Shown piece after piece: positions 26,289 through 63,369 of a stretch of 64,000 bases of DNA. This DNA comes from Antedon mediterranea. Its lineage: Eukaryota > Animalia > Echinodermata. The stretch is from positions 12,524,001-12,588,000 of the forward strand of contig NC_092674.1 of assembly GCF_964355755.1 (NCBI RefSeq). Reading direction: 5' to 3'. The position numbers and the translations under genes are program-made. The stretch's first letter is position 1. Each line of letters opens with the position of its first letter. Under the pieces are notes generated by a model. It did no database searches. It was not told where the DNA came from and saw only the letters and a list, made by a program, of their open reading frames with translations.

Positions 26289-26910
26289 ACACGGTATGTA
26301 TTCAATTATCTCAACACAAATACCAATTGAAATGCAATGGTTTCTGTGATTAGTTCTTTAGTTCTTTTAAATATGTCTACTATAATCTTTCCATCTCTTC
26401 TGAAACCTGTTTTCAATACAATCAATTGCCTGTTGTAGATATGTAACATGGTGGGACCAAACCCTATTAGTCACACAGGCTATTCACCCCTTACTCTCCC
26501 CGATGCCTACTTAACTTGGAACACTACATTCCTGAGGTGGGTCTTCCAAGGAAAGTCAATCAGGATGTGGTACCATTTAATTAGTCATCCTTCCTGTCCC
26601 CTTAATATAAATATATGTTTTGTAGTTAAGTTAGTTAGTTCGGGTATTGATTCTTGAGACTATAACATCAGTCAGAATCACTACGTTTCACATTGTTTTA
26701 TAATATTACTTTTTGATTGAATAAATATTATATTTTGTACATTGAATAATTGTGTGCCATCGTTATTGTCTTGGCCCTCGACACGACTACCGTTACATGG
26801 TGGCAGTGGTTTTTACGAACTCACAAAGAAAAAGTAAATTTATACAGTCGACCAAAAGCTGTAGAATTTGAAAAGAAGCTGATTTTTATTTCCGAAACGG
26901 ATTTTGTTTT

Positions 26911-29066: not shown

Positions 29067-32000
29067 TTTTGTAAAATCAATTTCATCTTGTATGTATAAT
29101 CTTAAATATAATACGCTTATTTACTTATCAGATTGGATTTAGTTAAATGTAGTATTAAGTTTACTGCCACTGTCATGATGATGTGTATGTTGAATTGTGT
29201 TTTATTGGTTCTCCCCTCCTGCCCACTGGGTACAAGAAGCTTTTCACAACTATGTTCTCTGAATGAAGTTAATTATAATGGATCACAAGAAACTTTTAAC
29301 ACTTACATGAGAATTACTTATTGATAAACTATTTCACTTTATTTGACTCGGATTGATGAGAAACTTGAATCCAGAAATGTACATTTTTTGAAGATTTTCT
29401 TCAAGATATAGTGGACAGTCAACTGCAGTTATGTCGTTCTCAGATTTTTTTGTTATGAACTGAATTTTGGGAAGCAGGTCAACTTGTTTCTAGGCAACAG
29501 CTGATTGATGGATCTATCAGGAGTAAATACAGGAGTTCCTACATTTATGTCCCGCTGACTTTCATTTTCAACTGAACATGTTTGCTGAGCTATATATTAT
29601 TATGAACGCTTTATATTGTTATTATGACTTTTAATTTGAGAACTTTTACCAATTTTACTTTTACTTTTGTATGTTTTGCCACGTTTGCCGATTTATTGAT
29701 TTGTGACGATTTGCGTTACTTTTTCTTTTGTTTAGATTTAAGATGTTCGTAGTTAAGTTTGTTTCTCAATACATTTTTGGCTCAGTGACTCGTTGGTTTC
29801 GAAGACACGGCTTCGAATTGACGAGCGGGGGAATGTAACATGGTGGGACCAAACCCTATTAGTCACACAGGCTATTCACCCCTTACTCTCCCCGATGCCT
29901 ACTTAACTTGGAACACTACATTCCTGAGGTGGGTCTTCCAAGGAAAGTCAATCAGGATGTGGTACCATTTAATTAGTCATCCTTCCTGTCCCCTTAATAT
30001 AAATATATGTTTTGTAGTTAAGTTAGTTAGTTCGGGTATTGATTCTTGAGACTATAACATCAGTCAGAATCACTACGTTTCACATTGTTTTATAATATTA
30101 CTTTTTGATTGAATAAATATTATATTTTGTACATTGAATAATTGTGTGCCATCGTTATTGTCTTGGCCCTCGACACGACTACCGTTACAAGATACAAACA
30201 AGGAAAACGCTTATTCATCATTACTAACAAGTAAGTTATCAATGATAGTTATTTCTTCAGGTTGGTGTACTTACATTTCCATCACATAACCCTTACATTC
30301 TATCACGTAAAGTATTAAGAGTACACGCCTGTTCATGTGCGCCATATTATTGCTCATATATTCTTTACTAAAATAATTTTGCAAGCACGTTAATGTATTG
30401 ATTCAACATTACTTTGTTTATCAATATTGGGGTTGTATATTCATATGAAGTAATAATATTAACAAGGTCATCACTCGGGAAACCAAATTTTTGGGAAAAA
30501 AGCAATGGATTTGATACTGCATGACATTTTTTTTCTGTTATTAACCATAATAGAAAGTAAAAATAAAATGTCAACTATTGCTATATTTTGGGGTTAAAGG
30601 TCACCAAATACAGGTCAAAATACCAAAAATTATATTTTTAAAATAAAACCATTATAATGGTTTAGATTCACGGTGATTCTAGAAACAGCAGCGAATTTAT
30701 CAAAACTGTTGTTTTTGCTCTTTTAAATTGAAATTTCATGGTTTCTCCCAGTTTCCATGGTTACAAGACACTATTACAATTTACCAAACATACCATTATT
30801 AGTGGATTTATATTTAAGATGTCTTCTTCCTAAACAATATTAAAAAGTTTGGCACACTTTGAATTGATTTTGTCCCACTGTGCCATGGGCCAAGAGCTAT
30901 TCCTTTATTATTCTATTTTTTTTAATCGGTAATCGTGACCCTTTATAAGTTGTTGTATATGATGTGCCAGCGTGCTACGTTCTAGACATTGGAATAGTAA
31001 ACAACTTAACTAATAGTAAAAAGAACTTGAAACGAATTTTAAACGTCTGTCCAGCATTAGAGATAATCTTAAAAAATTCTCTTCTGGAAAGAGGTAATAG
31101 ATGCATGGAGTAATTTTATTTCTATTCATTATCCAAAGTCTGTTGACGAGCTATTAAGAATGCAAATTTGGAATAATGAAGTAATAAGAATAGGCAACGA
31201 ATGTATAAGATATGGAAATTGGGAAAAAGCAGGTATTCTGTTTGTTAATGATTTGTTTAACAGCAATGGGCAATTTATGAACAAAAAAGAAGTCGAAGAT
31301 ACCTATGGAATTAAGATAAATTATATAAAATTAATAGGATTAAGAAGGCTTCTTATGGAAAAATTTAACAATTTAATGATATGGGAAATTAAAAAAAAAA
31401 CTGTTTTGCCAGATATTCCATTTCATATAAAAAGTACTCTTTCAACAAAGAAAGGGATGTCGTATTTTGTATGATGTTTTAAATAACTCAATGTTTAAAT
31501 CATGGAAAGCACAAAAGAAATGGGCAGAGAATAAATTTGTATTCAATAACGAACAATTGAAAACAATCTACCTAGATCCACATACGTGTATAATGCATAT
31601 TGTTTTAATATATTTTCAATATAAAATTGTAAACAGAATAATTGCAACAAATGAACAATTATTTAAAATTAATATAAAAGAAACTTCAATGTGCTCATTT
31701 AGAGATGGTAAAATTGAAACCATTTTGCATTTGTTCTGTAATTGTCGAATAGTAAAAAGGATATGGAACCTCCTCCAGGAAAAAAATATCAGAAAAAACT
31801 TGAGCGCATTTATTTTTAGTAAAGAGAGCTTTATTTTCGGATACCAAGATGCGCATCAGTTTTATAATTTAAAAGTCATTAATGCAATTATTCTAATTGT
31901 AAAATCATTTATTTATAGTTAAATGTAAGCCAACTATCAAAATGGTTATGAACGAGTTAAAAAGGTTTTATGAAACGGAAAAATGTATTTATCATCAGAA

Positions 32001-35000
32001 TTTCCAGGACAGTATTTTAAATAGAAAATGGATAAAATTAGAAGCAGTTATAAATCAAATATGAAATTGTTAGAGATTAGAATAATTTTTATGAACCTTT
32101 ATTTAATTTGTGAGATGGATATCTTTGTTGTTTTTTGTTTAATTTTTATTTTTTATTTGATTATGTTTTTCCTTTGTAATGTATTATAAGATGGAAAAAA
32201 AAAAGTAAACAACCAAATAAAAGTGAAATTGGGTAGACTTGTAAATGGTAGTTGCGAATTAATTGCCATTTCTTACAAAGGGAGCATACCGCCTCTCGAA
32301 ACTACGTATTTTGGTACCTGGATGTGTATAGCATGGCCTCCGGATGTCTACGCATGAGCTGGACCAACTTCTAAATATATTTACTCTATAAATATTTCTT
32401 ACAGAGGGACACCGCCAGATTAAGTGCGTCCTATCACTAGTAAGTAACTTGATTCTGATTTCTAACTACAGGACAGATATTGACGCGTAAACCACAAAGA
32501 AAATGAGTTTGTGAATTAGTAGACGTTTTACTGTAATATTAAATATATTTGTTACTAAAAATTAGTTTGATAAAATATATTCTACAAAATTAGTAGGCCT
32601 AATCGTTTTCCCCTAATAAATTAAGGGGATGGGGGGTGGGGGCACGTGTTTGTTTATGAGTGAGAATCAATAAGGCATTTAGTTAAAATGCAGACCGTCT
32701 TAAATTACTGGACATGTTCCGATAAATATATTCTCATCATCAGAATTGTAATCAAAGCCTAGAATACTTGTATACGTACAAAGTTGCGTTTAAATGAGTC
32801 AATCATTAGCATGAGAATAGATTTATCGAAACATGTCACGTAATTTTAAGATGGTCCACATTTTCATTAAATGCCTTATGATATTATTGATTATCAATCG
32901 TAATTTGGTGGTATTATACATGATGTGCCTGTTTATATACAGTGAAAGAGCTTATTTTAGTATCCTATAGTAATATAGTTTCTATATAAGAGAATATGTT
33001 ATTTCAAATCAGGTACAAAAGCCGACGATCCAAGCGAATTACATGTTTAAAAAAAATCGGAAAACACTCATTTGTTATTTTCAAAACACATTGAAAATCG
33101 GCGCGGTCCGATGGCATTCGTGACTGGCGGAAAAACGCAACAAAAATGAAAAACGAAAATGGCATGTTGTGTTTTCTGTAGGCCTATACAGTAATTAGTT
33201 TCTCAGATACCACCGTTTACAGTAGTATAATTGGGTGTTTATTTCAAGCTCATATCAACGGGCAAAGAAATCCTCGTTATTAAAAAAAACATATTTAAAC
33301 TTATTCACTATAGTATATTTAAATTATCTACTTATTACTTTATTTATATATTGTTTTCTCTTTTTACTTGGTTAGATAAAACAAACGGAAAACATTCTAG
33401 TTGAAATTGTTTATGTTAATTATATCCACAGATTGCACTATTTTCTTTATACTTAATTAGGTAATCTTTTCGTACTGTTGGGAATTGATAAATATTTCAG
33501 TTCAATTATTTTCCAAAATAGTGGTACACAACAATGAAAGAAAACAACATTTTTGTTACGTTCTTGTCATTAGAAATATTCTTGCGACTGAGGTGAACTT
33601 CGAAAATGCCGGTCAGATATAAAAAAAAACAGTTACAAGGAATAAATTAGCAATTGTCACTGCATACTCATCCATCAAACTAGCCTACATCGAGAAAATA
33701 TTTAATTCTATGAATCTTATGATGGTTAGTTTTATAGGAACAATAGTACTATTTTTATTTGTTTTGGCAATTAATGCAATTAAAGCGTAATTAATTCGTC
33801 ATATTCCATTTGGAATACTACGTCCTGTAAAATGACTATAGAATGTTCTGATTTGTTAATTTTTAAATTATATTATAATATACAGAATTATATATTATTT
33901 AAAATGTTCGGGTAGCTTCCATGCATGCGGCTTTTGGCCTTAATGGAAGTCCTTTTGTATATTTTTTCTTTTTTTACAGTATAATTTAATTTTGTTTAAA
34001 CTACAGGCGTGGCCCGTGAAAAAAAAAATCAAAGTATATGTATCGCCGTCAACGGCAAATATTGGAGCAGATCAAAAACTACATCAACCGGGAAATCACG
34101 AAATCAATTTTATACCGCGGACGATTGAAAATCTGCCGATGAAATCAGAAAGGTTGTTTTAACACCTTTTATAATATCTGCCTAAGAGAGAAATATTATT
34201 AAATCTACGTTTCGCGTATCTGAGATAGATAATGTAGGTATGCAAGGCGGAAATCTTTTTCCATTGTGCTCAAAAGTAACCATAATTTAAGTATAGATAC
34301 ACTAACATCGTGGAGCACATTTAGCTCGTAGTATCAGGTACGTGCACATAACATCGCATTGGTAAGTCACAAACATATTAGTAAAATGCACAACACTGCA
34401 GTAATAGTTATTAAAACATAAAGGTTATGAAATAATCAAATTAAACAAATGTCTATCCTTACACGTACGAAAAAAACACCAACAGTTATCTAACAACACG
34501 AATTCCTTACCTTCGCGCAAACACTGAAAGAACGAATGATTATTTATTATGCTTAATTCTGGAATAGGTATGCACAATGTAAAACGCATAGCACCAACTC
34601 CTTGTCGGTTCTTACCCCAGCTGTTCCATTCATCTAATATCTTAGAAAAGATAGTATTAGTGTTTTTAATGTCTTATGTCATCGGTAGACTTTTAACAGT
34701 CATCGGTAAAGTTACTTCCGAGTTCGTCATCACTTTACGATTTCCAACTTCGCTGTATAGTCCCAATAAAACCTCTGTACAAAACGCTTGCAGCTGTCCC
34801 ACATATGAACGTGGCATGTACATTTGATATACATTTGAGTCCAGATAGTTCATGTTTCTCTCTTTAAACGTCAAAATGTACTAATTTGTATTAATTATAT
34901 TGTAGAATACTATGGTTTGGCTATTTAATATTATTGTAACTCAGACTGTTTAAAACTTAATGAAGAAATAGCTCATAATGTGTAATATGTTATAAATTCT

Positions 35001-35438
35001 GTATACACTACGATAGGACGTGACGTTATTATTATATTACAGTTGTAGACTATGTATAAATTTTATAATGTACCGCGATGGTAAGATTCGCATAGAAATT
35101 AATAATATTACAAGTAATAAATATTAATTTATAAAGATTAAACAAGTTATTACAAAGTTTGACATCAATTGTGACAAAACCTTGGTTAATCTGACTTTCC
35201 AATGTCAAGATTAACCATGACGAGGCAGTGGTGTTCCGAACCATGTGAGGGATACAACCGTGCAGTTCTCGACAATTTAGTCATCCTCGCCACAAAAATG
35301 GTCTGTAATATGACCCACGATGTGCTTGCTTCATTTAGGTATGTTATTATTGGCACGCCCTTTATATTGTAAAATTAAACACTTTTTTAAATCACATTGA
35401 ATTATATAGCACATATTATTTATGTGTGTAACACTTAC

Positions 35439-35537
35439 TTTGGTCTGAAGATCCAATTGAGCACCTTCCTTGAGCAAAATGGAGCAAACATCTGTGTGGC
35501 CGTTTTTTGCAGCCACATATAAAGGTGACGCTCCAAT
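35439..35537 (-). CDS. Ankyrin-repeat exon, IGASPLYVAAKNGHTDVCSILLKEGAQLDLQTK
   Basis: Inside ORF 35331..35555; 99 bp, canonical splice sites; identical to exons at 24463 and 7904. Confidence 0.9.
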
Positions 35538-38500
35538 CTGAAATATTACAAACATTATGTTATAGTATTTTCTCTCTCTAAACTAAGTATTATAATATTG
35601 TCCTGGAATCAATACGATGTGATCATTTAAAAATGACGTTATAGATTTAAATTATGCTACATAGTTAAATTAAATAAAGAGTATTAACCCTTTTCTTTAA
35701 GATAATGTATGTATACATATACATTTTTTGTCTTTCTTGTAGGCCTATAACATTTTTTTTACATTTTTTTATAAATTTATAAAACAAGTAAGTGTTTTTT
35801 TCTTTTTTAGCCTGAAAAGTAAACAGTTCATCCGATCCGATAGTGCTAACTAGTCTGAATGTAAACTGGCAGTTACAGCTAAAAATATATCTAGGCTCCA
35901 AATTCTGTTCAGGTAACACACTTTGACTGCAAAATTCTTACAATGATTACGGAATCTATTACGAGAGGTGATGGACTTTTTCTTTGAACGTCAAAATAGA
36001 GCATTGGATAGGTTGGGTCTTGCAAAATTTAATGTGTTTCCTCAATAAAGTCTCTTATAAAAGTGAATCAAATTGAGATTTACTTAATTATAACTACGCT
36101 TCACTTAGTAGTAGTAACTACTACTAAGTGAAGCATAACTAAAAATACGTTCCAGCTAATTCTTACATAGCGAGTAATGATAATATTTTTAATGATAGAT
36201 TTATAAAAAATTACTTAGGCCTATGGGAGGTTTAACTACAAAAGATTTAAGTCTACGCAAAAGTAAAGTCTATTTGATACTCTCATTAATGAGGTCGTGC
36301 CATTTAGGATCACTACGGTAGTGATTTATTTGCAGTCTCAACTTCAGATTGGGTACCGTACCGTATTTCATGATTTAGGTGATTTTCCTATTTTTGTTTG
36401 TTACTTTAGGTGGAATATACTGTATGGTACTGCAAATAAGTCAATATATAATAATAACCCACTACTCTAATATTAACCCATGGGGGTTACTCTTAAAGTG
36501 ACAAAAACTTATGATACAGCTGTATTTTGAAAATAAGTAGATAATGCAGGTTGATCTTGGGAGTAGGGGAGGATTGAGTGTTTTTGAGTTCAAACAAATT
36601 TGTTTATTCGTACTGTTTTATTATTTTGCTATAAGTTGCTGACCAAAAAAGTTGGGGTGGGTTACTATTTTCAGGTGCTTAATTTAAGATTAGTAATAGT
36701 AACCCATTACTCTAATTGTAACCCCCCTTCCAATATATATAATCTATATAATCATTATTGTATTGGCGTCACTTTACTGATCTCGTTTTTCTTTGTAAGA
36801 TTTTCAATTCTAATATAATTAATACTGACAATTTATTTAATATTCGTAATCCAAAACGAGTTACTCGTAGCTCATCTTCTGTTGGTACTCTTTTTGATAT
36901 TCGTCGCTGCAGAACTGAATCTTCTTTTCAATCATATCCCACGTGTTACCAGAATTTGGAATAACTTACCCAGTGAAATCCGCAACTTAAATATTTCTGT
37001 TAGTTCTTTTAAAGCCAAATTACTTAATTATCTCAATATTTATTCTTTAAATAATTTTGATATTGAAAAAGTGTGTAGTTGGTCGCTTTCTTGTAGATGC
37101 TTTAATTGTAGAACGTAATTTATTTATTTTTCTTATATGTTTCTTCTGGTTTGACAAACTAGCATAGGTGTTTAACACCTGTTTGGTCTTTCCGTGCCTC
37201 CTTTTATAATTATTTTGTCTTCTTTTTCATGTATATGGCAGAAATTGAATACATAAATAAATAAACACGGTATGTATTCAATTATCTCAACACAAATACC
37301 AATTGAAATGCAATGGTTTCTGTGATTAGTTCTTTAGTTCTTTTAAATATGTCTACTATAATCTTTCCATCTCTTCTGAAACCTGTTTTCAATACAATCA
37401 ATTGCCTGTTGTAGATACAAACAAGGAAAACGCTTATTCATCATTACTAACAAGTAAGTTATCAATGATAGTTATTTCTTCAGGTTGGTGTACTTACATT
37501 TCCATCACATAACCCTTACATTCTATCACGTAAAGTATTAAGAGTACACGCCTGTTCATGTGCGCCATATTATTGCTCATATATTCTTTACTAAAATAAT
37601 TTTGCAAGCACGTTAATGTATTGATTCAACATTACTTTGTTTATCAATATTGGGGTTGTATATTCATATGAAGTAATAATATTAACAAGGTCATCACTCG
37701 GGAAACCAAATTTTTGGGAAAAAAGCAATGGATTTGATACTGCATGACATTTTTTTTCTGTTATTAACCATAATAGAAAGTAAAAATAAAATGTCAACTA
37801 TTGCTATATTTTGGGGTTAAAGGTCACCAAATACAGGTCAAAATACCAAAAATTATATTTTTTAAATAAAACCATTATAATGGTTTAGATTCACGGTGAT
37901 TCTAGAAACAGCAGCGAATTTATCAAAACTGTTGTTTTTGCTCTTTTAAATTGAAATTTCATGGTTTCTCCCAGTTTCCATGGTTACAAGACACTATTAC
38001 AATTTACCAAACATACCATTATTAGTGGATTTATATTTAAGATGTCTTCTTCCTAAACAATATTAAAAAGTTTGGCACACTTTGAATTGATTTTGTCCCA
38101 CTGTGCCATGGGCCAAGAGCTATTCCTTTATTATTCTATTTTTTTTAATCGGTAATCGTGACCCTTTATAAGTTGTTGTATATGATGTGCCAGCGTGCTA
38201 CGTTCTAGACATTGGAATAGTAAACAACTTAACTAATAGTAAAAAGAACTTGAAACGAATTTTAAACGTCTGTCCAGCATTAGAGATAATCTTAAAAAAT
38301 TCTCTTCTGGAAAGAGGTAATAGATGCATGGAGTAATTTTATTTCTATTCATTATCCAAAGTCTGTTGACGAGCTATTAAGAATGCAAATTTGGAATAAT
38401 GAAGTAATAAGAATAGGCAACGAATGTATAAGATATGGAAATTGGGAAAAAGCAGGTATTCTGTTTGTTAATGATTTGTTTAACAGCAATGGGCAATTTA

Positions 38501-47750: not shown

Positions 47751-49413
47751 TATCAAAGAACTACTTATATCATTAATGTATGTATTGTTTTATATTATTG
47801 TAATATTCGATGTTTTTTTTACTATTATAATGCCAATTATTATCCTATTGGAAATAAGGATTTAGTCGAAACCAGCCTAGTAATTTGAATTTGTACGCCT
47901 GGTATCATTCTCAGACCCCTTCTTTTACAACCATAGGGTCTAATAAAATTTCGAAGGTACTCTGACACTAGATTATCCGAATTATGAACATTCAAATGTC
48001 ATAAATTGAATTCCATAATATAAAGGAAGCCAATGAAGTTCGAAAGGAAGAGGTCCTGCTCTAACACTTAGTAACATCTCAAATATAACCTAGCGTTTTG
48101 TAATATTTTCAGTTTTTTACCAAAGATACCAATAAACTGCGTGTTACATTAGTCCAGTCTATAAAGGAACCAGTCGCATCAGCGCACGTCGTATATTACC
48201 TTAAACAGTCCTCATTCTGCATAGACCTCTTGCTCACCCTCTAGTAAGTATGGACGATGAATTGTTTGAAAAAAACCTCGGTTACCATATAATTATTGCA
48301 GTGCTTGCTATTCGTTAAAATAAACCTAATCTGTTTGTCAATGTCTATTTTAGACTATATAAGATGAGGAAGATTTTAAGAACCATGCTTATTATTCGGG
48401 GCGGGGTGGGTATTAGGGGTTGAGGCTTTCATTCGCGGGAGACATTTTTTGGTAAAATTTCATAATAAATACATTTTGTTGTTTATGTCCTTTATTACTG
48501 AATGTTAATTTCATTGATATGTATTGCTTTTGCTATCTGAGTGTTAAGTAAATGTATTTGTATGGGGCAAACCTTTATCTAACGAAATCTTCTCCAATTT
48601 GCTTTTGCTATTGGTGAATAAAGGAAAAAAATCGTGAACACTAAACTTAAGGATATTACCACTACTACTACTCATCCTTCCTTATTTTAGCTCTCGTAAT
48701 ATAAAATCTTCTTTGACTGTACTTGAAAAAAATCCCTAAGATATGGGATATACATACCGCACATATCTACGTCAGGAAAAGACAATGTAAGTCGCTTTGT
48801 ACAAAGGTGAACCTTTTTCATGATGTAACTGCTGCTGTCAGTATGCTGTTATTTACCTACCTAATAGAGCAACACCTTCCCCGCGATTAAGTGTACATTT
48901 AATGAAGAAAGAACAATACTTAAAACTGTTACGTAAAAAAGGCGAGCGGCGTTTATTGTAAGTAATATTTTAGATGAATTAATATTATCAACATGCACAA
49001 GTACCTTAAATTGATTTCTACAATGAAAAGGATTCCAATGAAAAAAAGTGTGTCCTGCTCTAAAACATAGTTACACCTCAAATACAAGTTATTTGGTAAG
49101 ATCTTGCTTGCATTGCTTTAAAAGACAACGAAGTAAACTATCTTTGATAAATGACTTCCCAAAGTCAATATTAACCTTGACAAGGCACCGGTGTTCCGAA
49201 CCATAATTATGTGAGAGTTACGACCGCCATGCAGTTATCGACAGTACAGTCATCCTCGCTACAAATTACAGTATCTATAATATGACCCGCATTGTGGTTG
49301 GTTTATTTACCTATATTATTACCGGCACGCCCATTAAATTGTAAATAATTTTTTTTTTTTAAATCACACTGAATTATATAGCACCTGTTATTAATAATAT
49401 TTGTAACACTTAC

Positions 49414-49512
49414 ATTGTTTGGAAGATCCACTTTAGCACCTGCCTTGAGCAAAATAGTGCAAACGTCTGTGTGGCCCTCTTGTGCAGCTCCATTTAAAGG
49501 TGACCATCCATC
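49414..49512 (-). CDS. Ankyrin-repeat exon, DGWSPLNGAAQEGHTDVCTILLKAGAKVDLPNN
   Basis: Inside ORF 49303..49527; 99 bp between TTTCAG and GTAAGT, phase 0/0. Confidence 0.9.
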
Positions 49513-52169
49513 CTGAAATAATAACACACATCATGTTATAGAAGTAGTAGTATAGTCTTCTACAAAAAGCTATTTAATATTGTATTGAAATCTTTTCGAT
49601 GTGATCAAGTAAAACTAGCTTAAACACCAGGTGAGGGCAAACAAATTATATTGATCTTGCATTCCAATATCTATAGTTTCCCCTATGTTTCATAATGTTT
49701 GTGATTGTATGTGTGTTACACGAGCTTGTTGAAAATATGCACTTTATTATTAGTGGGGGATAGTTCAAATTACACAATAAAATCTCTATTCATGTGTACA
49801 CAAATGTTGTAAATAGAGAGGCAATTTAAAAAAACTAAAAATAAACAGTGTGGTAAAAAATGTTATCAGAGGACTGAATATAGATAATACTTCATAGTTT
49901 TATTTTCATGCTATAGCAAAAATTATCCACCGTTTATCAACCATCTTTTTTCATCTTCTATAGAGTCACCAGACATGTAATTACACTAGGTTCAACTACT
50001 TAACTACTGAAAAAAGTCTTACTGGTTTTTATAGCAGAATTTTACAAAATTGTGTATTTGACCATTTTAAGGGAAATCCACTTGTTTTCGTCTTGATGTC
50101 TATTACAATTATTTGATTTCTATTACAATTATTTGATTTATGTACAATTTACCAGATATTATATTTAACATTGTTGCCTGTACCTAAGCTTTAACTTAAA
50201 TAAAGATTATTAACATTTGATGTTTTCTTTAAGATAATGTATTGTATATGCATGCATTTGTTTTGCTTGTATATTATTTTGTTATATAGTACGGTACTTT
50301 TATACGTAGCATTTATATATTGCAAATTCGGTAAGAAATTGTGGTCCTTAATATGCATGAAAGATGGTACTAGTTCTGCTACCTGTTATTTTGCTACAAT
50401 TGTCAAAGAACCTATTGATACAGTGCACTGATTGCGTAGTAGAATACTGTAGTTTGATACGGTTAGTGTAATTTTGCGACGGTTGAAAACTTCAACCTTT
50501 AACATTTTTTGTTGGAGACATTGATATACGCACTGTCATATGGAACTTTTAAAGTTAAAACAGCCCCAAATCATATATTATGATAAAGTGGTGTTTGCGT
50601 TTGAACTGGCAGTTACGACTAAAATGTATCGAGGCCCCAAAATATGTTCAGATAACACATTTTGACTGCTAAATTCTTAACTATTGGTTTCATTTTGCTG
50701 TTACTGGTAGAGGATATGTTTAAACAAATTTTTTTACCAAATCAAATGAATACGTCGATTCATATCCATTTTGTGTACCATTTTAATAAAATCGTGTTGC
50801 TCTGTAGGCTACATCACAATATATACAAAAACAGAAAAATCACCATTAAAAAAATCATTCCCTAATATTTAGTACTCTAAATGGTAAAAACTATTAGGAA
50901 ATCTATGTGTATGAGTTGTGATGGACCGCTTCCTTGAACTTCAAAAATGAGATGGGTTGGGTCTTGCAAAATCAAATGTGTTTTCTTAGTAACGTGATCG
51001 CTAATCAATCAAATTGAAAATATACGTGAAGCATAATTAACAATACATTTGAGTTCCAACTTATCCTTACATGTGGTCTCGGTAAACCATGCACCAATGA
51101 TAAAAGTGAGAATACTTTCAATGACCGATTTATTAAAAAAAAACGCAGGCCTGATGGGAGGTTTAACTTCAAACTATTTAAGTCTATGCAAAAAGTAAAA
51201 ACGTTGAGCATGGGCCTTAGTAATAATACTTATTGTCGTGCCATTTAAGATCTCTAGTGATTTATTTACAATGTCAATTCTAGAGGGGGTATTTCTGTCA
51301 CAGTCAAAAGTGACGGATATGTAAAGTTAAACGCAAAGGGTAATTTGCATAGAACTAGTCAGGTGTATTACCGTATAAAAGAATTGCGGAGGAATGTAGT
51401 AATTACACCTCACATCAACCTTGTAGAGAAGGGAGGTGTCGCACCTCAGCAACAATACAGATTGACCATTGTAAGTAAGATACTCATTTATTGTAAGGCT
51501 ATATACTTATAATACTATATACTTGTAATAACGATAATGTATAGGTTACAATGTGATTCTGTGCTAACGTAGATAATTATAACAATTAAACGTTAACGTT
51601 TGTTTGTAGTGCTGCCCGTTGGGCTGAAGTTGATTTGTAGTAAATCGTAAACCAAGCCGAGTATACACATGCTTGTTTATGTATGATTGGAATGTAATTG
51701 GTAGTGAACAAGTCCACACAGAAGTGACCGGCGGAAAAAGAAATAAAGACATTCAGTTGCTAATATTATATATCTGTATACTTTTAATTGCGTTCTTCAG
51801 TGGCCATATAGTTCAATCTGGGCGTAACAATTTCATACTGTAGGTGATTTACATTTTGTGTTATAAAATGTCGAGTGTTTCACCTGCTTTGATAGAAACT
51901 ATACTGTAATGAGTTGAAAATGTAAACATATTAGTATATTAGTAAACCCATGATGTACTGCAAACCAAACTTGTGTATTTGTGCACATAATAGTAGGTGA
52001 CATTTGTATAATTGAGACCGTTTTATTTGATACGAACAAGCATGTGAACTCACAAAAAACCTACATAACCATATAATGTAGTACATTTTGAATGTTGACA
52101 TGATATGATAAACATTAAACATGTTCATTCTAACATAGATTTTTCTCAGATTACACCACTATCACGTTT

Positions 52170-52611
52170 ATATTTTTATAATTATTAATTAATACAAACG
52201 TTGAGAAGCAACTCTCAGTAATACAGTATTTATTTGTATATTATGTGTTTATATATCCAGCAGTAGAGCCTACCCACAGTCACAGTAATACATCTTCTTT
52301 GTACATGTGTTTATATATCTAACAGTAACCACATTCACAGTAAAAAATCGATTCTAATGGTGACCAAAAATGGGTAATACGTATTTACAATATTTCTAAA
52401 GTATTGCAATATTATATCTCAGTTTTAAGTTTATTCTCCAAATTTACCTACAAATTGGGAGTCTGAGAGATTGGAATGTTCTATTCATCGCAAATCAATA
52501 CATTTGTATAAACGTATATTAAATCTAACAAAATAGTATTTTTTTAAAGAAAATCGGTCTGTCTTCAACATTATGAGACTGTACTCGAGCTGTTCAACCG
52601 GTTTTCAGCTA
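52170..52611 (-). mobile_element. Internal fragment of the 9.2/15.7 kb Helitron family
   Basis: Similar to 10135-10275 and to the reverse complement of ~16010-16480; truncated at a TTAA by a Kolobok-like end. Confidence 0.75.
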
Positions 52612-54184
52612 TTAAAGCTCAGGTACAGGCATGAATTTTAAATATAATATCTGGTTAAGTACATACATGAACTATTTGTAACAGAAATCAAGACGAAAAA
52701 ACATGAATTTCTATTAAAATGGTCGAATACAAAATATGGCAAAATTCTGCCATAAAAACCAGGAAGATTTTTTTTCAGTAGTTATGTCTTGATAGATTCG
52801 TAACGGACGCATATTCAAATGAACCAAATTTACTAGAATTTAGTAATGAAGCAAGTTTTAGATTCGTCTTAAAAATATATCATCGCATCCCATCCTATTA
52901 CTATTGAAACCGAATTGAAACATTTTAACAAGCTTTTTATGATGGTCACACACATCGTCAGATATATGTATAGTAATGAGAAATATACAAACAATGATGT
53001 TGTTGTGATGTGTGGGTGTTTTTGGGGAAGGAATTTGTTGGTAACATTAATTTCATAATAAAATAAATTCCCCTAGATATGAACAAGTACAACACAGAAT
53101 ACAGAATTGTGTGTATAAATATATGTGGGTGGCGTGGCGTATATTAGAGGGTGGAGGTTGAATATACCAAAGATGTTTTATGGGGGAGAGGGCGTTCGTA
53201 TCCCGGGTCTCAACGGCGATATATGCAGATAGCGCGCAACCTGTTCAAATCTAACATCAATTCAACAACTCGGCTACCATTCGGCTATATCGAGATTTTA
53301 CCTGATTTGAAATACATCTATAATTATAGCTATAATCAGTTCTCCCGATGTAGGCATAGACCCCGTTTATGATATTTAAAATTGTATATACTGATTTTAA
53401 AATTTACCCGCAACATAATTTGATGATGTTTTAATATAATTGATTTGTTGATCGTTTTTTTGCACAAACAAAAATGTGATGTGCCCATATATGGACATGA
53501 TGATGTCATATAATTACCATATTTGGGCACACTAATTTTATAGTGTAGACAGCTTGGAATGTTACGCGTGGCCGTAAAAAAAGCTAAACTAACATTGGAG
53601 GGGAGCAAAAACTCGGCAGTCGCAAAATAGTATTAGTGAAATGCGTAATAACATTGCAGTAATATTTATTAATTCATAAAGTTTATGAAATAATCAAATA
53701 ATAATCATTTTGATTATAAAGTGCGACAGCTCGATTACTACAAGTGCGACACAGTACAAACGGGGTTTACAGATAGTAATTATATGCGATGTGTCTTTTT
53801 TTAAGACAGTACTTATCAGGAATGGACCCTATTTGTGTCCTTTCTTGCGTTTCGGGATCATTAATTTGAAAATAATATTAAGGTCTGTGGTGAGATCTTA
53901 CTTGGAGATTCAGGGCTTTAAATGACCGCGACTTAAAAACTGTATTTGATTTAAGATGTCAAGATTAACATTGATGAGGCAGCGTTGTTCCGAATTACGT
54001 GAGGGGTACCGTGCAGTTCTCGACAATACATTCATCCTCACTACAAAGAGGCCTAAGTTGGTTCATTTAGGTATGTTATTACTGATACGCCCTTTAAAAA
54101 TTGTAAAATTAGCACTTTGTTTTAATCACACTGAATTATAATTATACTGTAGTACATATTATTATTAATGTTTGTAGCACTTAC

Positions 54185-54283
54185 ATTCGTCTGAAGATCC
54201 AAATTAGCACCTGCCTTGAGCAAAATAGTGCAAACATCCGTTTGGCCCTTTAGTGCAGCCACATATAAAGGTGACGCTCCATT
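54185..54283 (-). CDS. Ankyrin-repeat exon, NGASPLYVAALKGQTDVCTILLKAGANLDLQTN
   Basis: 99 bp, TTTCAG/GTAAGT boundaries, phase 0/0; hand-translated; flanking introns homologous to the other five exons. Confidence 0.9.
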
Positions 54284-55072
54284 CTGAAATATTACAAACA
54301 TTATGTTATAGTATTTTTTACTCTAAACAAAGTATTATAATATTGTCCTGCAATCAATACGATGTAATCAATTAAAAATAACGTTATAGATTTAAATAAT
54401 GCTAATAATAGAGGGCTAAAATCACGCATTATGGCTTTGCACGATATTTTTTGGCGTTCCAGATAATTGTTTTTTTATTGTTTACGTGTTTTAATATTAT
54501 TTATGATTTTCAGACATATTTTAAAAGCTTATATGCATGAAAATAGTGTAGTTTTCTCATCTTCTAAATCAAATGTCAACTGTATACGTGAAGCATAATT
54601 TTATTGGATTGTTATTGTATTGTATTATATTGTTAAAACAATACATTTCAGTTCCAACTTATCCTTACATACATAAACTTGGTTCTTAATTGATATGAAA
54701 ATCCTTATTGCAGCTTAAAAGAAGCTATACTGGTATTGAGCGCAGTAACATCTGACAAACGGCGGGCTTTGATAACTACTGTAAAATCAACAGGGGCTAA
54801 ATTTGAACCAGAACACTGGGTTAACCCGATATTAATCACGAAGATGCCCTGGATTATTTATCATCATATTTTAAATCAGATGTAATTGGAATTCTATAAA
54901 CCTCAGCTTCATCCCTATTTCTAGATAAATGCCATTCATACTCATTGAGAGTTGGCTGGTTTATTTAGCAGAAACCAGATATCCTTTAACTTGCATCAGC
55001 TTAAACTTATTTTAGTTTGACCAAAATTATGCAAAAATCCCTCCTACTCCCCTTGGGAGTTTTCTGCCGCTA

Positions 55073-55558
55073 GTTAGACCCCCCTCCAAGGCAATTATTG
55101 TTATTGATTATACGTAATTAGTTAGCTTAGCAATGATCTATGCCTCAAAAGCTCGGACGAGTTAGAATTTGAGGGGAAATGTCATAGGTCAAGGTCACAA
55201 CTAACAAAAAACTATTTTACTGCCTAGAGACCACAGTTTGTATCCAATTCTCACTAAATTTAGCCACAATGATCAATGATTCATCATATAATTGTGGTTA
55301 CATTTTGAAGAATCAGGGTCAAAGATCAAGGTTCACAAAAAACAAAAAAAAACTTGAACCTGCGACCTCAACTGTGAGAGGCTGGATACATAATCATTAC
55401 ACCAAACTTTCATCCACAACTTTGCAGTGTGTAGTTAGCCTATTTACACTAATAAAAAAAAAATAAAAAATAAAAATATATATATATATTTTCCAGAGAC
55501 ATTTTATGTAGGGGAATTTTACAGTAGGCGGAGGTTTGTACTCTCAGAGTACCCTCTA
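55073..55558 (+). mobile_element. Probable non-autonomous Helitron/Helentron-associated element
   Basis: 3' end TAGGCGGAGGTTTGTACTCTCAGAGTACCCTCTAG|T with a GTACTCT/AGAGTAC hairpin; GGTCAAGGTCA motifs; 5' boundary approximate. Confidence 0.4.
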
Positions 55559-56352
55559 GTTGGAACTGTTATTTGTAATAGTACAGGCCTAATTTAAATG
55601 CAGAAGCTCACAGTAAGTTTACGTCGTTGTACCATTGTTTCCTGTTAATTGGAATGTAATCAGTTTTTATTATAGTGATTTCTGATTTGACAAATTAAAT
55701 TTGTCAAAACCAGAAATCACTATAATGTATGACTGATGAGTTCAAGTTCAATCTGAAAACATCACTGATGACACAAATTATAGCTAAACATTAATTATTA
55801 TTGTCAACATAATCGAGTTGAAGGTATTGCTGTATATGTACGTAAATATCATAGTATAGCATACTGACAAAAAACGTTACATAAGGTAATTAGTCTATTT
55901 TCGTATACTAAGCGACTTACATTTTCTATACCTGACATAATTATTTGAATTATGTATATCCCAATATATTTGGTTGGTGTCATAATAGGCGATTTTAAAC
56001 TCTCATAAACATGCAATGAAATCCTCGTTATTGAAAAAAAAATCTATTTATTAATATTAATATAATATGTTTTCTCTTTTTACTTGGTTAGATAAAACAT
56101 GTTACCGAGAAACGGCAAACATTCTAGTTTAAATTCTTTATGTTAAGTACCCACAGATTGAACTATTTTCTGTAAGCTTAAATAGGTTTTCTTTTCGTTC
56201 ATGTGTTGGGAATAGAAAATATTTCTCTTCAAACAGTTTCCAAAATATTGGTACACAACAATGAAAAAAAAAATGTGTGTTAAGTTCTCGGTTACGGTCA
56301 ATAGAACCATTCTTGCGACAGAGTTGAACTTCGAAAATACCGGTCAGATGTA

Positions 56353-58487
56353 CAGTGGGGGAAAGGCACTTCGCGTTTTGACCGTTAAATCGTGTAAAAT
56401 CGACTTACTTCCGCATTGACGATTTTGAAGCGCCACCTATCGTTGAAAACTGAAACCACGATTTTTCGTCGCCTAGCAAATAAGTGCTGTTTTATTTTAA
56501 GCTCTCATGAATATTTATGAACCGCCCAACATTACCTATTATGGTAAAAGCATTTCCTAATAAGTATAATTGGATAACCAATCGGTTTCCTTCAAAGAAA
56601 CCAAAGCTAATACAATACATTCGGCGACTGAAGTCGGGACTCGTGAAATTTATAAATGTGGTACGATTTGACTACTGTTTTGTTGTCCATTTTCTGTCCA
56701 TAGTCGGAGGTGCATCCCAACAAATTACAAAAATTATAATCAATTGTTTTATCAAGAATAATATTAGTTTAATCGTTTAATCGAGTATGATATATTTCTA
56801 TCCTGTTAAAAATTTGTTGGTGTATTCTCAGGCCTCGAAAGGTAGGTACATTTTGTAGCTGTGAGCGTGGTTTCGGCAACGCGAGACACGTGTATCAGTA
56901 TAGGCGATAGCGAGACGTGTGTTGTACTGTGTTGATGCTGATCCGATAATCGTTAAGTTGTACTGATTACGAGTATCATTGGTCCTGGCCGGCCTAGCCT
57001 GGTCATCTGATCCTCCCAAAAAATACTTTTTTCAATCAGTATTAATATTATTATTTTTTTTTTCATTTATTATTTGATTTATTAGGCTCAATAGATGCCT
57101 AGCTAGGCTACTACTAGTTGGCCTAGATTATATAAATAATAATAGTAAATACTGTAATTTAAATAATAAAATACAGCCCCCCCGTTTTACTTCTTAGGAC
57201 ATCATATAATATTATAATTATATATACAGCCAGACATTAACATTTTTTTTAAATAATATTTATTATTTTTTCTGACACTTTCAGGAATCGTTGATGATGC
57301 AGAGTTCTTCGTCATTGTGACTTCAAATTGAGAGTGAAGTGGATAAAAAGATGACACCGGTACCTACCGACATTGTCATACCCAAACTATAATTTAATAA
57401 TTTAAAACAAAATGTTGAATTGCAAATAATATATGTATGTTGCAGAGGATTTAGATGAATTACAATACAAATGTTTTATGTTGAATGCGAGTTATACTCT
57501 GTAAATTATGTTATTGTCATGTGGTAGACCTTAAAAATTGAATATTTATTGTATGCTAGGCCTATATTATATTTTATTAATACTATTACTGTATTACTAT
57601 TATTTATATTAACAGTACTACTATAGTTGAATAAATAATTTGTTATTCAATCTAATTGCTTATTTGTTCATCGATAACAAAACAATTGTAAGCAAGTATA
57701 TAACAGTTCTTGTTAGCCGCTTATTTCAGGTCATATTATTAATATTAGCTAGGCCCGATCACAACGTCACTAAGTGACTTTCCGCCCCTGGAACAATCGT
57801 TCGCTAAATAGGGCTAGGCCTCGGACTCGTATAAAAGCTATTATAATAGTTATGATAAATATTCCTCAACTAAAATGTATATTGTGATAAATAAACAAGT
57901 AATAATATACGTTGTATTGGAATGTATTTATTTATATGAATTCTTATACGCGGACAATTATAAACATCGCGTATATCGTTCGCTATAAATAAATTCATAA
58001 ACACGATGACGACGTGTTTACAAAATGGCGGTTTCGCTAGTTTTCGATGGAACAAATAGAGATACCTTTAGTTTGAATAGTCGGAGCTGCATCCCAACAA
58101 CCGAATTTTGTATCTTAATATCGTATTCTGTGGATTATTAATTTTTCTAACAGGGATTTTAAATTCAGGACTGTTCAATTTTTCTAAATATTTTATTTTA
58201 ACGATTTTCTAGAGTAGGCTACAATTTCGGAAAAAAGACATTGGTTTATTTTGCCGTTAAATTATAGATTATCGTTTTGTTCAAATACATTTAATTTTAC
58301 ATGACAATATATCACAACCATTTATGAATTTATTTCACTAACAATATTTTTCCGATAATCAGCTAAATTTACAAATATTGTGTTTTTCAAACACCCTAAA
58401 ATTTAGCAATTTTGAACTAAATTAGAAAAGTAGGGCGCCCTCTCCGAGTCGAAATTTGACACGATTTGTCGACTGGCTCTCCCACTG
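56353..58487. mobile_element. Non-autonomous TIR DNA transposon (2,135 bp), superfamily unassigned
   Basis: CAGTGGG...CCCACTG termini; subterminal inverted AAATCGTGT.AAAT motif; 4-bp TSD TGTA (56349-56352 / 58488-58491); paralogous site at ~22637 is empty. Confidence 0.78.
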
Positions 58488-59427
58488 TGTAAAAACAAGT
58501 AAAACAGAATAAATTAGCAATTGTCACTGCATACTCATCCTTCAAACTAGCCGCCATCAAGCAAACACTCAATTCACACTCATTCAGATAAACAAAAAAA
58601 TGCACTTATTTTCGGATTATTTTTTTCTTACTTAATTTGTGTATTATTTTATATTAATGTACATCGTTTTTATTTAATATTATGACTCCAATTATATATT
58701 GGAAATAAGGATTTGATCGAGTCGACTTTAGATTTGCAAGTAACAGAGAAGCATTTCTCTTGTCCGTTGTCAGAAGGTTATTGAATCTTTGTTGATGATT
58801 TCTCTAATACCTATATGTAATTAACCGCTTTACGTCAATCTGTGTAGTAGGTACTAACAATAATATGTATTAGAACTCTAGTAACTGTCCTTTTCTGATA
58901 TCTATCTTCGACTCAATGTATTTCATTTCTTTCATGAATATGAACAGTTTATCTTAAATGAAAGTTGAATTGAATTTGAATTGCTTGTTTATTGTATTAA
59001 CCATTTTCTGTAATTTTAGTATTAATTTCTTTAAAATGAATCTTATGAGCGTTAGTTTTACAGCAACAATAGTACTTTATTTAACATTTTATAATAAAAA
59101 TAAATTACCTTGGATATGAATAAGTACAACACCGTGTTTGATATTATCAAGAAGTGATAACAGTAAACAATTGTATGAATATGCTTGATAAATAAATAGA
59201 CATAGCAGTCAATGAATTATTCAACAATTAGTATAATTGTGTTTGTTTTAGAATACAATATTGTGTGTATAAATGTACGTGGCGGAGCGTTTATTAGAGG
59301 GTGGAGGTTGGATATTCCAAAGATGTTTTATTGGCGAGGGGCGTTTATTCAAATATTTGCGGTAGGCCTAATTGGTATAATCAATATATTATTTAGTTTA
59401 AATCAAACACCAAGTAATGACAATCAT

Positions 59428-61411
59428 TACCCAAAAAGAAAATTAGAATATTTAATAATAATAAGCCTTGGCTCACAAAAGATGTAAGAAAGGAATTACT
59501 TAAGAAATATATTGCATCCAAAAACAAATGCAACGAGATGGAAAAGAAAAAGATTCAAAAATGTGTAAATAATAAAATCAAAGCATGTAAAAAAGAATAT
59601 GAAGAAAAAATTGAGAACAAATTCAAGTGCCGGGACACCCGTCAGGCCTGGAATGGAGTTAGGAAAATTACAGGTATGGGGAAGAAAAATAATGAAATTG
59701 AACACAGTTTTAAACCAAATGATTTTAATATTTTTTATTCTAGATTTGATGAAATAAATTTTAAATGTGAAATGACTGCATCTGCTGAAGGGTTTAAAAA
59801 TGAAATGAATGATAAAAGTGCAATAAAAATTGATGTAGATGATGTTAAGAAATATATGGAAAGGGTAAATGTTAGTAAAGCAAAGGGTCCGGACGGTGTA
59901 TCAGGGCGTTTGATTAGATCATGTGCCTCTCAGCTTTCACCAATAATAAGCCAGCTTTTCCAGTGTTCACTGAATACGGGGGTGGTACCTGATCTATGGA
60001 AGGTCTCTGAGATTATACCTGTTCCGAAAATGTGTAACCCTAAAATCATTAACGACTTCAGACCAGTGGCATTAACATCTATTCTAATGAAGATCCTTGA
60101 GAAAATTGTTAGAAGTCAACTAATGTCTGAATGTAGTGATTTTATGGAATACTAACCAATTTGCATATTAATGTAATATAGGGGTCGATGATGTAATTAT
60201 AACCTTGTTAGACCTGGTGGTTTCACGTTTAGATAAGAAGGGGACCTATGCTCGAGGGCTACTCATAGACTTTTCATCTGCATTTAATTTGATGCAGCCT
60301 CATATTTTAATGAATAAAATGTCTGAATGGAAGGTTAATACTTACCTTGCTCTATGGGTTGGTGATTTTCTTACAAATCGGCAACATTATGTTAAAGTTG
60401 GTAAATCTATCTCAGAGATTAGAAGGATCAACTCTGGTGCACCCCAGGGGTGTTGTCTGTCACCAAGTTTATTTACAATATATACTAGTGAATATCGATC
60501 TTCATGTAGCATTGTGTCATATAATCAAATACGCAGATGACATGGTACTGATTGGTCTATTGAAAAATGCTGACGATCATGTGTATAAGGCTGAATATGT
60601 TAAATTAATGTCATGGTGCAATGACAATTACCTTAAGATTAATTTTAATAAAACTAAAAAAATTATATGGGATTTTAGGAAAAAGAAAAATGAAAAGAGT
60701 TATCTGATAGTTAATGATCAGACAATTGAATGTGTTCATGAACCAAATATCTTGGTACACATATTGATGATCAACTTAGTTTTGAAAAAAATACGGCCGA
60801 GATAATTAAGAAAGGTCACCAAAGGTTATATTTCCTAAGAAAGCTAAATAAATTAATGTTAGCTGTGGTACTCTAAAATTATTCTATGAAACAGTTATTC
60901 AATCAGTACTAGTTATCTCTTTTATTGCTTGGTTCGGTAATTTAAATGAAACACACAAGAAAGGTCTCATTAGAATTACTAAGATAGCATCAAATATAAT
61001 TGGTTGTACGGTTAATGATTTAAAATATCTTTATGAAAAACAGGTCCTAAGTAAATTAAGTAAAATTTTAGAAGATAAGAAACATCCATTGCATATGATA
61101 TTTTTTAAGAACAAGTCAGACCGGTTACGGGCTCCTAGAGCTGATACGTCAAGAAACCGACTGTCTTTTGTACCAAATTCAACTCATATTTTTAACTCAA
61201 AGATTGTTAGATCATAATAGCGCACATGCAATATATATTTTAAAGTTTTACTGTTGATGGATGTTTTAATTAATGTTTTTAAATTGTAAATTTGTTCTAT
61301 GTATGATGTAATTATGAATGTTTTACCATATTTTTCTGTCGAGGAAAACAATTTTTCCATGTACAATTTAGTATATATGGAACGAATAAAGATTTGATTT
61401 GATTTGATTTG
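59428..61411 (+). mobile_element. 5'-truncated, disrupted Rex1/Babar-like LINE with (GATTT)n tail
   Basis: ORFs 59538, 60205 and 60347 contain KAKGPDGV, NDFRPVALTS, IDFSSAFN, GAPQGCCLSP, IKYADD; AATAAA then GATTT repeats; ATCAT duplicated at both ends; empty site at ~1158. Confidence 0.9.
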
Positions 61412-62380
61412 ATCATCAGTTAATAAGAAACACGTTTTAAACGGCTTGCAACATGAACCAAAGCATCACTGGTCTCAATGACGATGCAGTACATACAGAT
61501 AGCGCGCAGTCTGTTCAAACATAACAGCAACTCAACAACTCAGCTACCAATCGGCTATATCGATTTCTGATATAATTTTATATACTGATTTTACAATTTT
61601 CCCTGCAAAATACCTCGATGATGTTTTAATATGCTGGACTTTTTTTTTGCAGTATAATTTCATTTTGTTTAAACTACAGGCGTTGCCCGTGAAAAAAAAC
61701 CCCTGCCGATGAAATTAGAAATGTTGTTTTAAAACTTTCTATAATATCTGCCTAAGAGAGAAATTTGAACAATGGAATAGAACATGAACTCAGTACTTTT
61801 GGATTTTAACCCACGAAGCCTCAACCTTTGCAATCGAACATTTTACCGGCACAAACGAAGCAAATTGAAAAAGTCAACATGTTGCTGATCTGGTAGATAC
61901 CATTGACATGTTAGCGAAACAATACGCCATGTGTCTTAGAAAAGATAGTATTAAGGTTTTTTTTATTTTCTGATGTCATCGGTAGACTTTTAACGGCGGT
62001 AAAGTTACTTCCGAGTTCGTTATCACTTTGCGATGTCCGGGTTGCAACTACAAATTCGCTGTAGTCACAATAAAACATCTGTACGAAACTCGTGCAGCTG
62101 TCCCACATGTGAACGTGACATGTACATTGATATACATTTGAGTAAAAATATTCCATATTTCTCTCTTTAAACAAACTAAAAAAAATGAACTAATTTATAT
62201 TAATTATACTGTATATGGTTTGGCTATTTAATATTATTGTAACTCAGACTGTTTAAAACTTAATGAAGAAATAGCTCATAATGTTTAATATGTTATAAAT
62301 TGTGTATACACTACGATACGACGTGACGTTATTATTACAGTAGTAGACAATGTATAAATATTATAATGTACCGATGATAA

Positions 62381-62949
62381 TCTATATATAAATTATGGTT
62401 AATTCTGACAAAGGCGAGCACAATGCAAACACTTCGGTACAAATCTCCGCCTTGGATACCTACCTTATCTCTCCCAGATGTACCGCGAAACGTAGATTTG
62501 ATAACATTAGTTTTCACATCGACGCTATTGTTCCATATTTCAATCTTAGGAAGATATTATAAAGGGTTTTATAAGAAATTTTCTGATTTCAATCAGTAAA
62601 TTTTAACTCTACGCGCGGTAGAAGTAATTTCCGGGTTCACGGTAAGGTGTTGGTTTCAACCAGGGAGTTGTAAAACAACTACCTGTTTCAAGTGCTTGGT
62701 GGCGATAGCCATTTTGTGTTTTTGTTTATTTTCGGACCGCGCGTGTGAAGGTATATAATATAATCATCTAATACACTTAGGTTAGTGAGTACGTTTAGTT
62801 TTACGAATATCAAAAGCATAGTAACCGACCGAAATTGTCCAGGCCAGAATGTCCTTCTAAAACTGTTTACGACAAGAGTCATTATTATTCCGAGAACCAT
62901 CGTCTACACTTCCTAGAGGGGGAGCGAGAGAAGCGAGCTCACCCTCTAG
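62381..62949 (+). mobile_element. Short non-autonomous Helitron
   Basis: A|TCTATATATAAATT start; hairpin CTAGAGGG...CCCTCTAG|T end; shares CGAGAACCATC with the 18.2 kb Helitron end; absent from paralogues at ~7545 and 24105. Confidence 0.8.
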
Positions 62950-63270
62950 TAATTATTATTAATATTTATAAAGATTAAACAAGTTATTACCAAGTGTGAC
63001 ACCAGTTGTTACAAAACCTTGGTTAATCTGACTTTGCAATTTCAAGATTAACCTTGACGAGGCAGCGGTGTTCCGAACCATGTGAGGGGTACAACCGTGC
63101 AGTTCTCGACAATTTAGTTGCAACAAAAATGATCTGTAATATGACCCGCGATGTGGTTGCTTCATTTAGGTATGTTATTACTGACACGCCCTTTAAATTG
63201 TAAAATTAAACACTTTTTAAATCACACTTAATTATATAGTAATATTATTATTAATGTGTGTAACACTTAC

Positions 63271-63369
63271 TTTGGCCTGAAGATCCAATTTAGCACCTTC
63301 CTTGAGCAAAATAGTGCAAACATCTGTGTGGCCGTTTTGTGCAGCCAAATGTAAAGGTGACCATCCATC
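63271..63369 (-). CDS. Ankyrin-repeat exon (most 5' in window), one 33-aa repeat DGWSPLHLAAQNGHTDVCTILLKEGAKLDLQAK
   Basis: 99 bp, open frame; minus-strand acceptor TTTCAG and donor GTAAGT, phase 0/0; fits ankyrin consensus G-x-(T/S)PLH-x-AA-x-x-GH...LL-x-x-GA. Hand-translated; not in the ORF track. Confidence 0.92.

Follow-up and report, generated by a model that had tools for sequence, protein, structure and literature searches.

The stretch of DNA that we analysed, referred to below as the window, is a 64-kb piece of the genome of the crinoid Antedon mediterranea (assembly GCF_964355755.1, contig NC_092674.1, positions 12,524,001 to 12,588,000). A scan of both of its strands for ankyrin exons disclosed six of them, all 99 nt long, on the minus strand and in phase 0, with ag/gt ends and open frames (6/6). 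They are probably part of a crinoid Roco receptor, the ankyrin sensor of which owes its diversity to duplication of exons, to recombination and to selection; the evidence for this reading is presented below together with that for the alternatives.

Ankyrin cassette exons in the window

Each exon encodes one 33-residue repeat of the Pfam ankyrin family (PF00023), with scores of 31-41 bits against a cut-off of 21.1 in all four distinct exons (4/4). The six exons have four distinct sequences, three copies being identical; we designate them by their position in kb (Table 1). The repeats of the window share 61-76% identity in protein, and the introns between the cassette exons are 4.7-16.5 kb long. 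Homology extends over an intron-exon-intron cassette of about 450 nt, which is 70-85% conserved around all six exons. Inverted or inactivated intronic repeat exons were not found on either strand of the window (0/6).

Two of the identical copies lie in tandem units of 7.2 kb, a and b, which differ by only 5 substitutions over their last 5.9 kb and by 48 events in their first 1.3 kb. This contrast is the mark of a recent unequal crossover, although an assembly artefact is conceivable for this pair. The partial units (1.4-2.7 kb and 37-41 kb) were free of exon remnants. Recombination has also occurred within an exon. As far as exon nt 22, 7 of 8 informative sites group the 35.4k exon with the 54.2k exon; from nt 32 onwards, 33 of 39 group it with the 63.3k exon (permutation p 0.002 for one triplet picked after inspection, about 0.02 when corrected for twelve). 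It is a recombinant, with the breakpoint lying somewhere in exon nt 22-32. Crossing over in the conserved Ala-Ala codons would join the hairpin and first-turn residues of one repeat to the second-turn residues of another.

The cassettes have in common an intron block located 190-290 nt downstream of each exon (e.g. 49150-49270), which is GC-richer, has several 3-nt or 6-nt indels and marks a sharp end of the homology. This block had no match in Rfam and, by eye, no shared open frame, and its folding was within about 2 standard deviations of mononucleotide shuffles in 4/4 copies. We took it to be a part of the duplicated cassette; it may be a defunct exon or serve as a splicing element.

Table 1. 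Cassette exons and tandem units, in window coordinates
Feature	Positions	Strand	Evidence
63.3k ankyrin cassette exon, one 33-residue repeat, phase 0	63271..63369	-	Pfam Ank, E 1.6e-10
54.2k ankyrin cassette exon	54185..54283	-	exon scan and Pfam Ank
49.4k ankyrin cassette exon	49414..49512	-	exon scan and Pfam Ank
35.4k ankyrin cassette exon, recombinant (5' part resembling the 54.2k exon, 3' part the 63.3k exon)	35439..35537	-	breakpoint at exon nt 22-32
Ankyrin cassette exon, identical to the 35.4k exon	24463..24561	-	1250/1250 nt identical around the exon
7.9k ankyrin cassette exon, third identical copy	7904..8002	-	flanks differ at 7/698 nt
Shared intron-exon-intron cassette, reaching about 130 nt upstream and 290 nt downstream of the exon	49152..49614	-	counterparts at 53956-54404 and 63029-63460
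7.2-kb tandem unit a, one exon	19187..26436		sequence comparison of units
7.2-kb tandem unit b, one exon	30190..37412		sequence comparison of units

Probable gene identity and splicing of the cassettes

Among 32 protein matches, four were Antedon mediterranea models with 76-88% identity, the others not exceeding 72%. Three Antedon models are N-terminal pieces comprising a cap, one constant repeat and two cassettes, while the models P0020 and P0155 run from two cassettes through a constant repeat to a Death-Roc-COR-3xDeath part. In P0155, the Roc (32.4 bits) and COR-A (56.8 bits) domains both scored above their cut-offs, forming a Roc-COR tandem in one protein, and G1, G3 and G4-like nucleotide-binding motifs predict that it is a GTPase. 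No kinase family was matched in P0155, P0020, P0012, P0016 or P0018, which are fragmentary models, and no NACHT or NB-ARC domain in P0155. The window is the middle of an ankyrin exon array. Its exons likely belong to an ankyrin-Death-Roc-COR-Death Roco gene, in view of the 76-88% identity with the Antedon models and of a splice joint in a related organism, which is described below. This extends the ankyrin reading of a preliminary description of the window, in which the gene had been left unnamed.

None of the four window exons is identical to any of the nine repeats of the Antedon models. At their start or their end, these models read through into intron sequence that matches the introns flanking the window exons, which indicates that the annotation has split these genes. 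As the public annotation cuts them into 'uncharacterized' pieces, the family is easily overlooked.

DAPK1 carries ankyrin repeats, and in the atlas, clusters with the name DAPK1-like scored 0.94-0.95. According to the available text of PMC6337361, the DAPK1 group of Roco proteins combines Roc-COR with a death domain and has no leucine-rich repeat (LRR). The homologs found here are Roco proteins but not members of this group, because they have no kinase domain, either in P0155 or in the N-terminal models; they also differ from DAPK1 by having four death domains and by being a multigene family with a variable ankyrin array.

At least four Roc-COR models that are about 3% apart map to a single 31.9-Mb contig, and five paralog models differ by about 3% (14-17 of 517-580 residues). 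In a pair of paralogs with 9 differences in 355 residues, positions 3, 12 and 27 of one cassette are among those that differ, and two predicted isoforms (P0012 and P0018) differ in their last repeat. The Death-Roc-COR part has 2243 relatives, of which the ten top-ranking ones that were looked up all came from Antedon or Anneissia. The cassette profile was matched in only 5 of the 149 listed relatives, with no more than 18/33 residues, indicating that this type of cassette is narrowly distributed. At the level of domains, look-alikes in the atlas show the same layout in molluscs, arthropods and sponges. The N-termini of twelve crinoid Roco relatives that we scanned include ANK, DED, caspase, Macro and TAZ-KIX. 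The relatives P0278, P0285, P0291 and P0293 carry such fusions, to TAZ-KIX, DED, caspase or Macro; the one with TAZ-KIX looks like a CBP/p300 decoy, provided that it does not stem from an error in the gene model.

Evidence on splicing was obtained by comparing four sequencing runs on the 63.3k exon. Two of them (X5 and X9, from two studies and two organisms) behaved as spliced RNA and were classed as such from this behaviour only, whereas X1 and X8 continued into the introns. The cover of X5 rose from 131 to 627 at one exon edge and fell from 626 to 97 at the other, and X9 had none outside the exon. In both runs, contigs left the exon at its end and re-entered at its start (going back by 99, 92 and 89 nt, with sides of 35-54 nt). 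Paralogous cassette exons are spliced head to tail. Reading by hand, we found that an X5 loose end behind another cassette exon was identical to nt 1-30 of the 54.2k exon, that one X9 loose end resembled the beginning of the constant repeat located after the cassettes of P0155, and that the residues at the junctions fell into at least 10 different sets across joints and loose ends. Only one of the two organisms (X9) showed a joint to this constant repeat. As the contigs had 2-13 differences from the 63.3k exon, splicing is demonstrated for the family and not for the 63.3k copy.

A strict one-of-many cluster of mutually exclusive exons, as in Dscam, was also considered and was ruled out by the consecutive cassette joints in X5 and X9, although partial skipping of exons is conceivable.

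It appears very improbable that most of the exons are pseudo-exons or spares without use, or that part of the triplication is an artefact of assembly. Such an explanation would account for the identity of units a and b over most of 5.9 kb and for the public models, which contain no more than two cassettes apiece and terminate by reading through into an intron. Against it, all six exons are intact with conserved splice sites (6/6) and have a framework omega (ratio of nonsynonymous to synonymous rates) below 1, many variants are spliced, a long terminal repeat (LTR) insertion of its own precedes unit b, and the divergence of the 7.9k copy is 1-3%.

It is somewhat less improbable, but still not likely, that a few classes of repeats diverged adaptively once, were kept since then, and form an array that binds a fixed partner. 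The same classes, defined by residues 3, 7, 8 and 31-33, do appear both in the window and among the Antedon models, and the small distance between the five paralog models would fit with this. On the other hand, residues 8, 11 and 12 still vary within a class, the copy number is changing at present, and both the close paralogs and the spliced joints mentioned above differ in their cassette residues.

Variation and probable selection at the predicted groove

The preliminary description had tallied the codons of the four distinct exons, the fourth of which lies outside 49414..63369. Its counts were exact: 17/33 codons are identical, two (15 and 16) differ only silently and 14 change the amino acid at the positions that it listed (1, 3, 7, 8, 11, 12, 14, 19, 24, 27, 28, 31, 32 and 33), with 11 replacement and 1 silent codon between the 63.3k and 54.2k exons, and 8 and 1 between 63.3k and 49.4k. 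Its statement that the variation was 'nearly all nonsynonymous' is right in its numbers but says little alone, as about 76 of the 99 sites are nonsynonymous and a 14:2 tally is close to the neutral expectation. The positions randomised in the designed ankyrin repeat proteins (DARPins), which we take to be equivalent to codons 33, 1, 3, 11, 12, 31 and 24 here, all fall among the 14 variable codons (7/7; hypergeometric p 8e-4), as had been claimed. The register of the repeats fits with an aligned DARPin chain, where variation occurs at positions 3, 11, 12 and 24; engineered repeats also have changes at position 8. The other seven variable positions (7, 8, 14, 19, 27, 28 and 32) are not randomised in DARPins, and codon 24 is a two-state site (E or A) only.

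Omega was estimated with our own MG94/GY-type likelihood scripts on four sequences, without calibration by simulation, and the DARPin-equivalent set (codons 1, 3, 11, 12, 24, 31 and 33) was fixed before testing. Pairwise NG86 values were 0.89-3.2, resting on 1-4.5 synonymous differences, and the one-ratio omega of the whole exon (1.19-1.36) was not different from 1 (p 0.51-0.72). The seven codons had an omega of about 3.4-4.4 (p 0.003-0.02), compared with about 0.7 for the other 26. Mean divergence at replacement sites was 0.37 within the seven codons and 0.09 in the rest, compared with 0.12 for silent sites and 0.17 for the flanking intron, so that dN at the seven codons was 2.6-fold the intron divergence. 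Likewise, 12/21 columns segregated at the seven codons versus 84/272 in the flanking intron (p 0.027). When the breakpoint was modelled by separate trees on each side, with branch lengths anchored or not to the intron, omega at the DARPin codons was 2.5-4.6 in 4/4 variants (p 0.0006-0.037) and 0.5-0.8 for the remaining codons; the best tree of the intron-anchored model gave 2.46 (p 0.018). The signal is positional: omega shows no significant excess over the whole exon, but the position effect is real. The framework is constrained rather than 'frozen', the word used in the preliminary description.

Position-wise entropy was determined on 13 distinct crinoid repeats, 4 from the window and 9 from the Antedon models. 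It was highest at positions 8, 11, 32, 27, 12, 3 and 7, codon 8 being the most variable of all; codons 7, 8 and 32, which are fixed in DARPins, were as variable as the DARPin-equivalent ones. A table of contig variants, of which 40/46 rows were used, covers codons 6-32; its rows are linked within a codon, which overstates the p values. It comprised seven rows for codon 8, five for codon 11 and three each for codons 7, 12, 17 and 31. Codons 7, 8, 11 and 12 yielded 16/29 versus 11/54 synonymous, with an overstated p of 0.003 for this set, which was picked post hoc.

Usual ankyrin geometry puts the helix-1 side and the hairpin on the concave groove. This is supported in the available parts of PMC8229355 and PMC4986451. 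In the AlphaFold model of a homolog (mean predicted local distance difference test score 87.8), helix 1 covers repeat positions 5-11 and helix 2 positions 15-23; with these limits, positions 7, 8, 11 and 12 and the hairpin (31 to 3) are predicted to form the groove. The strongest variation is found at codons 8, 11, 7, 12 and 32, of which 7, 8 and 32 belong to the DARPin framework. Fourteen positions are tolerant in 328 unrelated ankyrin repeats; the seven of them on the hairpin and helix 1, a groove set drawn after inspection of the data, vary more than the other seven in the 13 crinoid repeats (p 0.007).

Could these patterns result from relaxed constraint and gene conversion? The groove would then drift neutrally while purifying selection maintains the framework and conversion homogenises it, the low synonymous divergence inflating omega. 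The whole-exon omega of about 1 fits with this explanation, as do the lack of preference for model M2a, the third positions of the invariant codons, which segregate at 2/19 against 84/272 for intron sites (p 0.07), and the fact that crinoid variability tracks the generic tolerance of ankyrin repeats (Spearman 0.72). We nevertheless consider it unlikely, as the groove codons change faster than the flanking intron and as the helix-2 positions 15, 16, 20 and 23, which are equally tolerant in general, are nearly fixed in the crinoid repeats.

Several results weigh against a Roco sensor under diversifying selection. The free site models were not significant, M2a being not favoured over M1a on any of the three topologies (p 0.12-0.31). 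The DARPin codons covered by the contigs (11, 12, 24 and 31) gave 10/29 versus 11/54 synonymous (p 0.19, all runs), and the differences between two Antedon N-terminal models were 7/21 at DARPin positions versus 17/78 (p 0.39). The strict DARPin set compared with the other tolerant positions gave a p of 0.09, and the groove contrast at the nucleotide level one of 0.06. Omega calculated on the exon alone is inflated, since exon synonymous divergence (0.12) is lower than intron divergence (0.17); multi-nucleotide codon changes and conversion can mimic an omega above 1; and only four distinct nucleotide sequences stand behind these statistics. Furthermore, the 64-kb window contains no N-cap, Death or Roc exon, and no RNA contig could be traced to its very exons. 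The diversifying selection on the binding face put forward in the preliminary description is partly supported for the predicted groove, by the partition tests on the DARPin set and by the intron baseline, but not by the free site models; recombination within the exon also contributes to the variation.

Candidate function and comparison with known systems

Taken as a diversified Roco receptor, the system would work as follows. The six exons are likely the variable middle of a crinoid gene encoding an N-cap, the ankyrin array, Death, the Roc GTPase, COR and three Death domains. Tandem duplication has multiplied the exons, recombination within them probably creates new combinations of half-repeats, and new residues on the predicted groove are probably favoured by selection. 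The stacked repeats would form a concave sensor, the groove of which would bind foreign or modified-self ligands in the cytosol. Binding would change the nucleotide and dimer state of Roc-COR, exposing the death domains to death-fold adaptors and leading to immune or cell-death signalling. Roc-COR switching and adaptor recruitment are features of Roco and death-fold proteins in general. From the evolutionary regime and from the death-fold and caspase partners of the family, an immune role appears rather likely. A more far-reaching possibility, which we regard as doubtful, is that crinoids hold a natural DARPin library, i.e. a multigene Roco family with ankyrin exons made interchangeable by recombination and combinatorial splicing, so that every animal (or cell) would have a private repertoire of cytosolic receptors coupled to death-domain signalling, in convergence with brown algae.

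The closest design is that of the LRR-ROCO genes of brown algae (Ectocarpus), for which the available text of PMC3341825 and PMC11378527 describes one LRR per exon, exon shuffling, selection on the concave face and alternative splicing, and which are proposed there to be immune receptors. In the part of PMC11378527 that was available, ANK-ROCO appears only as a domain layout. Both systems have one repeat per exon in equal phase (6/6 window exons), exon duplication and recombination. Selection on the concave face is described for the algal genes, whereas here the partition tests were positive and the free site models were not. The crinoid exons encode ankyrin repeats and are 99 nt long in phase 0, in contrast to LRRs of 72 nt in phase 2; death domains stand on either side of Roc-COR in the homologs; the host is an animal; and the window holds no inverted or broken exons and has introns several kilobases long. 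The crinoid system thus resembles the algal one without being a member of it (ankyrin, not LRR), and the likeness is likely convergent. Diversification of a Roco sensor with one exon per repeat has thus far been described in brown algae.

Fungal NOD-like receptors (NLRs) offer a second comparison. According to the available parts of PMC1805685 and PMC4986451, their WD40, ANK and TPR repeats, as in Podospora, undergo recombination, changes in repeat number and positive selection, which in the ankyrin repeats acts on the inner helix and the hairpin (PMC4986451). Similar repeats are exchanged by recombination in both cases, but the fungal switch is NACHT or NB-ARC rather than Roc-COR, the crinoid repeats are separate exons, and their identity in protein is lower than the 85% used as a criterion for the fungal ones. 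Engineered DARPins share with the crinoid repeats a constant ankyrin framework between caps and varied hairpin and helix-1 residues; the crinoid repeats differ from them in being natural, in varying also at positions 7, 8 and 32, and in deriving their diversity from exon duplication and recombination. Full-text literature searches, judged from their listings and covering few subscription papers, gave no account of an ANK-Roco family of animals that is built from cassette exons.

If the proposed reading is true, a variable intracellular receptor with the Roco exon-per-repeat design has evolved convergently, with ankyrin, in a deuterostome. It would be a new candidate class for echinoderm immunity and a natural readout of the ankyrin positions that are varied for binding, i.e. 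7, 8 and 32 in addition to the DARPin set.

The window also contains several repetitive or mobile elements. A very recent LTR element of the Gypsy type (26442-30189) has identical LTRs of about 356 nt and a 5-nt target duplication; its 606-residue open reading frame matches SCAN, zinc knuckle, protease and integrase C-terminal domains, with no reverse transcriptase match. An insertion of about 330 nt (12070-12405), absent from the paralogous units, has a full 5S rRNA match at its head (70.8 bits) and an A-rich tail, and looks like a 5S-derived short interspersed nuclear element. By eye, a frameshifted reverse-transcriptase region of a long interspersed nuclear element (59421-61217) lies in the intron that separates the 63.3k exon from the 54.2k exon. 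A broken retroelement on the minus strand (46279-47749) matches RVT_1 and appears by eye to be Penelope-like. Finally, a high-copy element is present as inverted copies at 9425-10583 and 15696-16976, about 5 kb apart, and again at 52152-52616.

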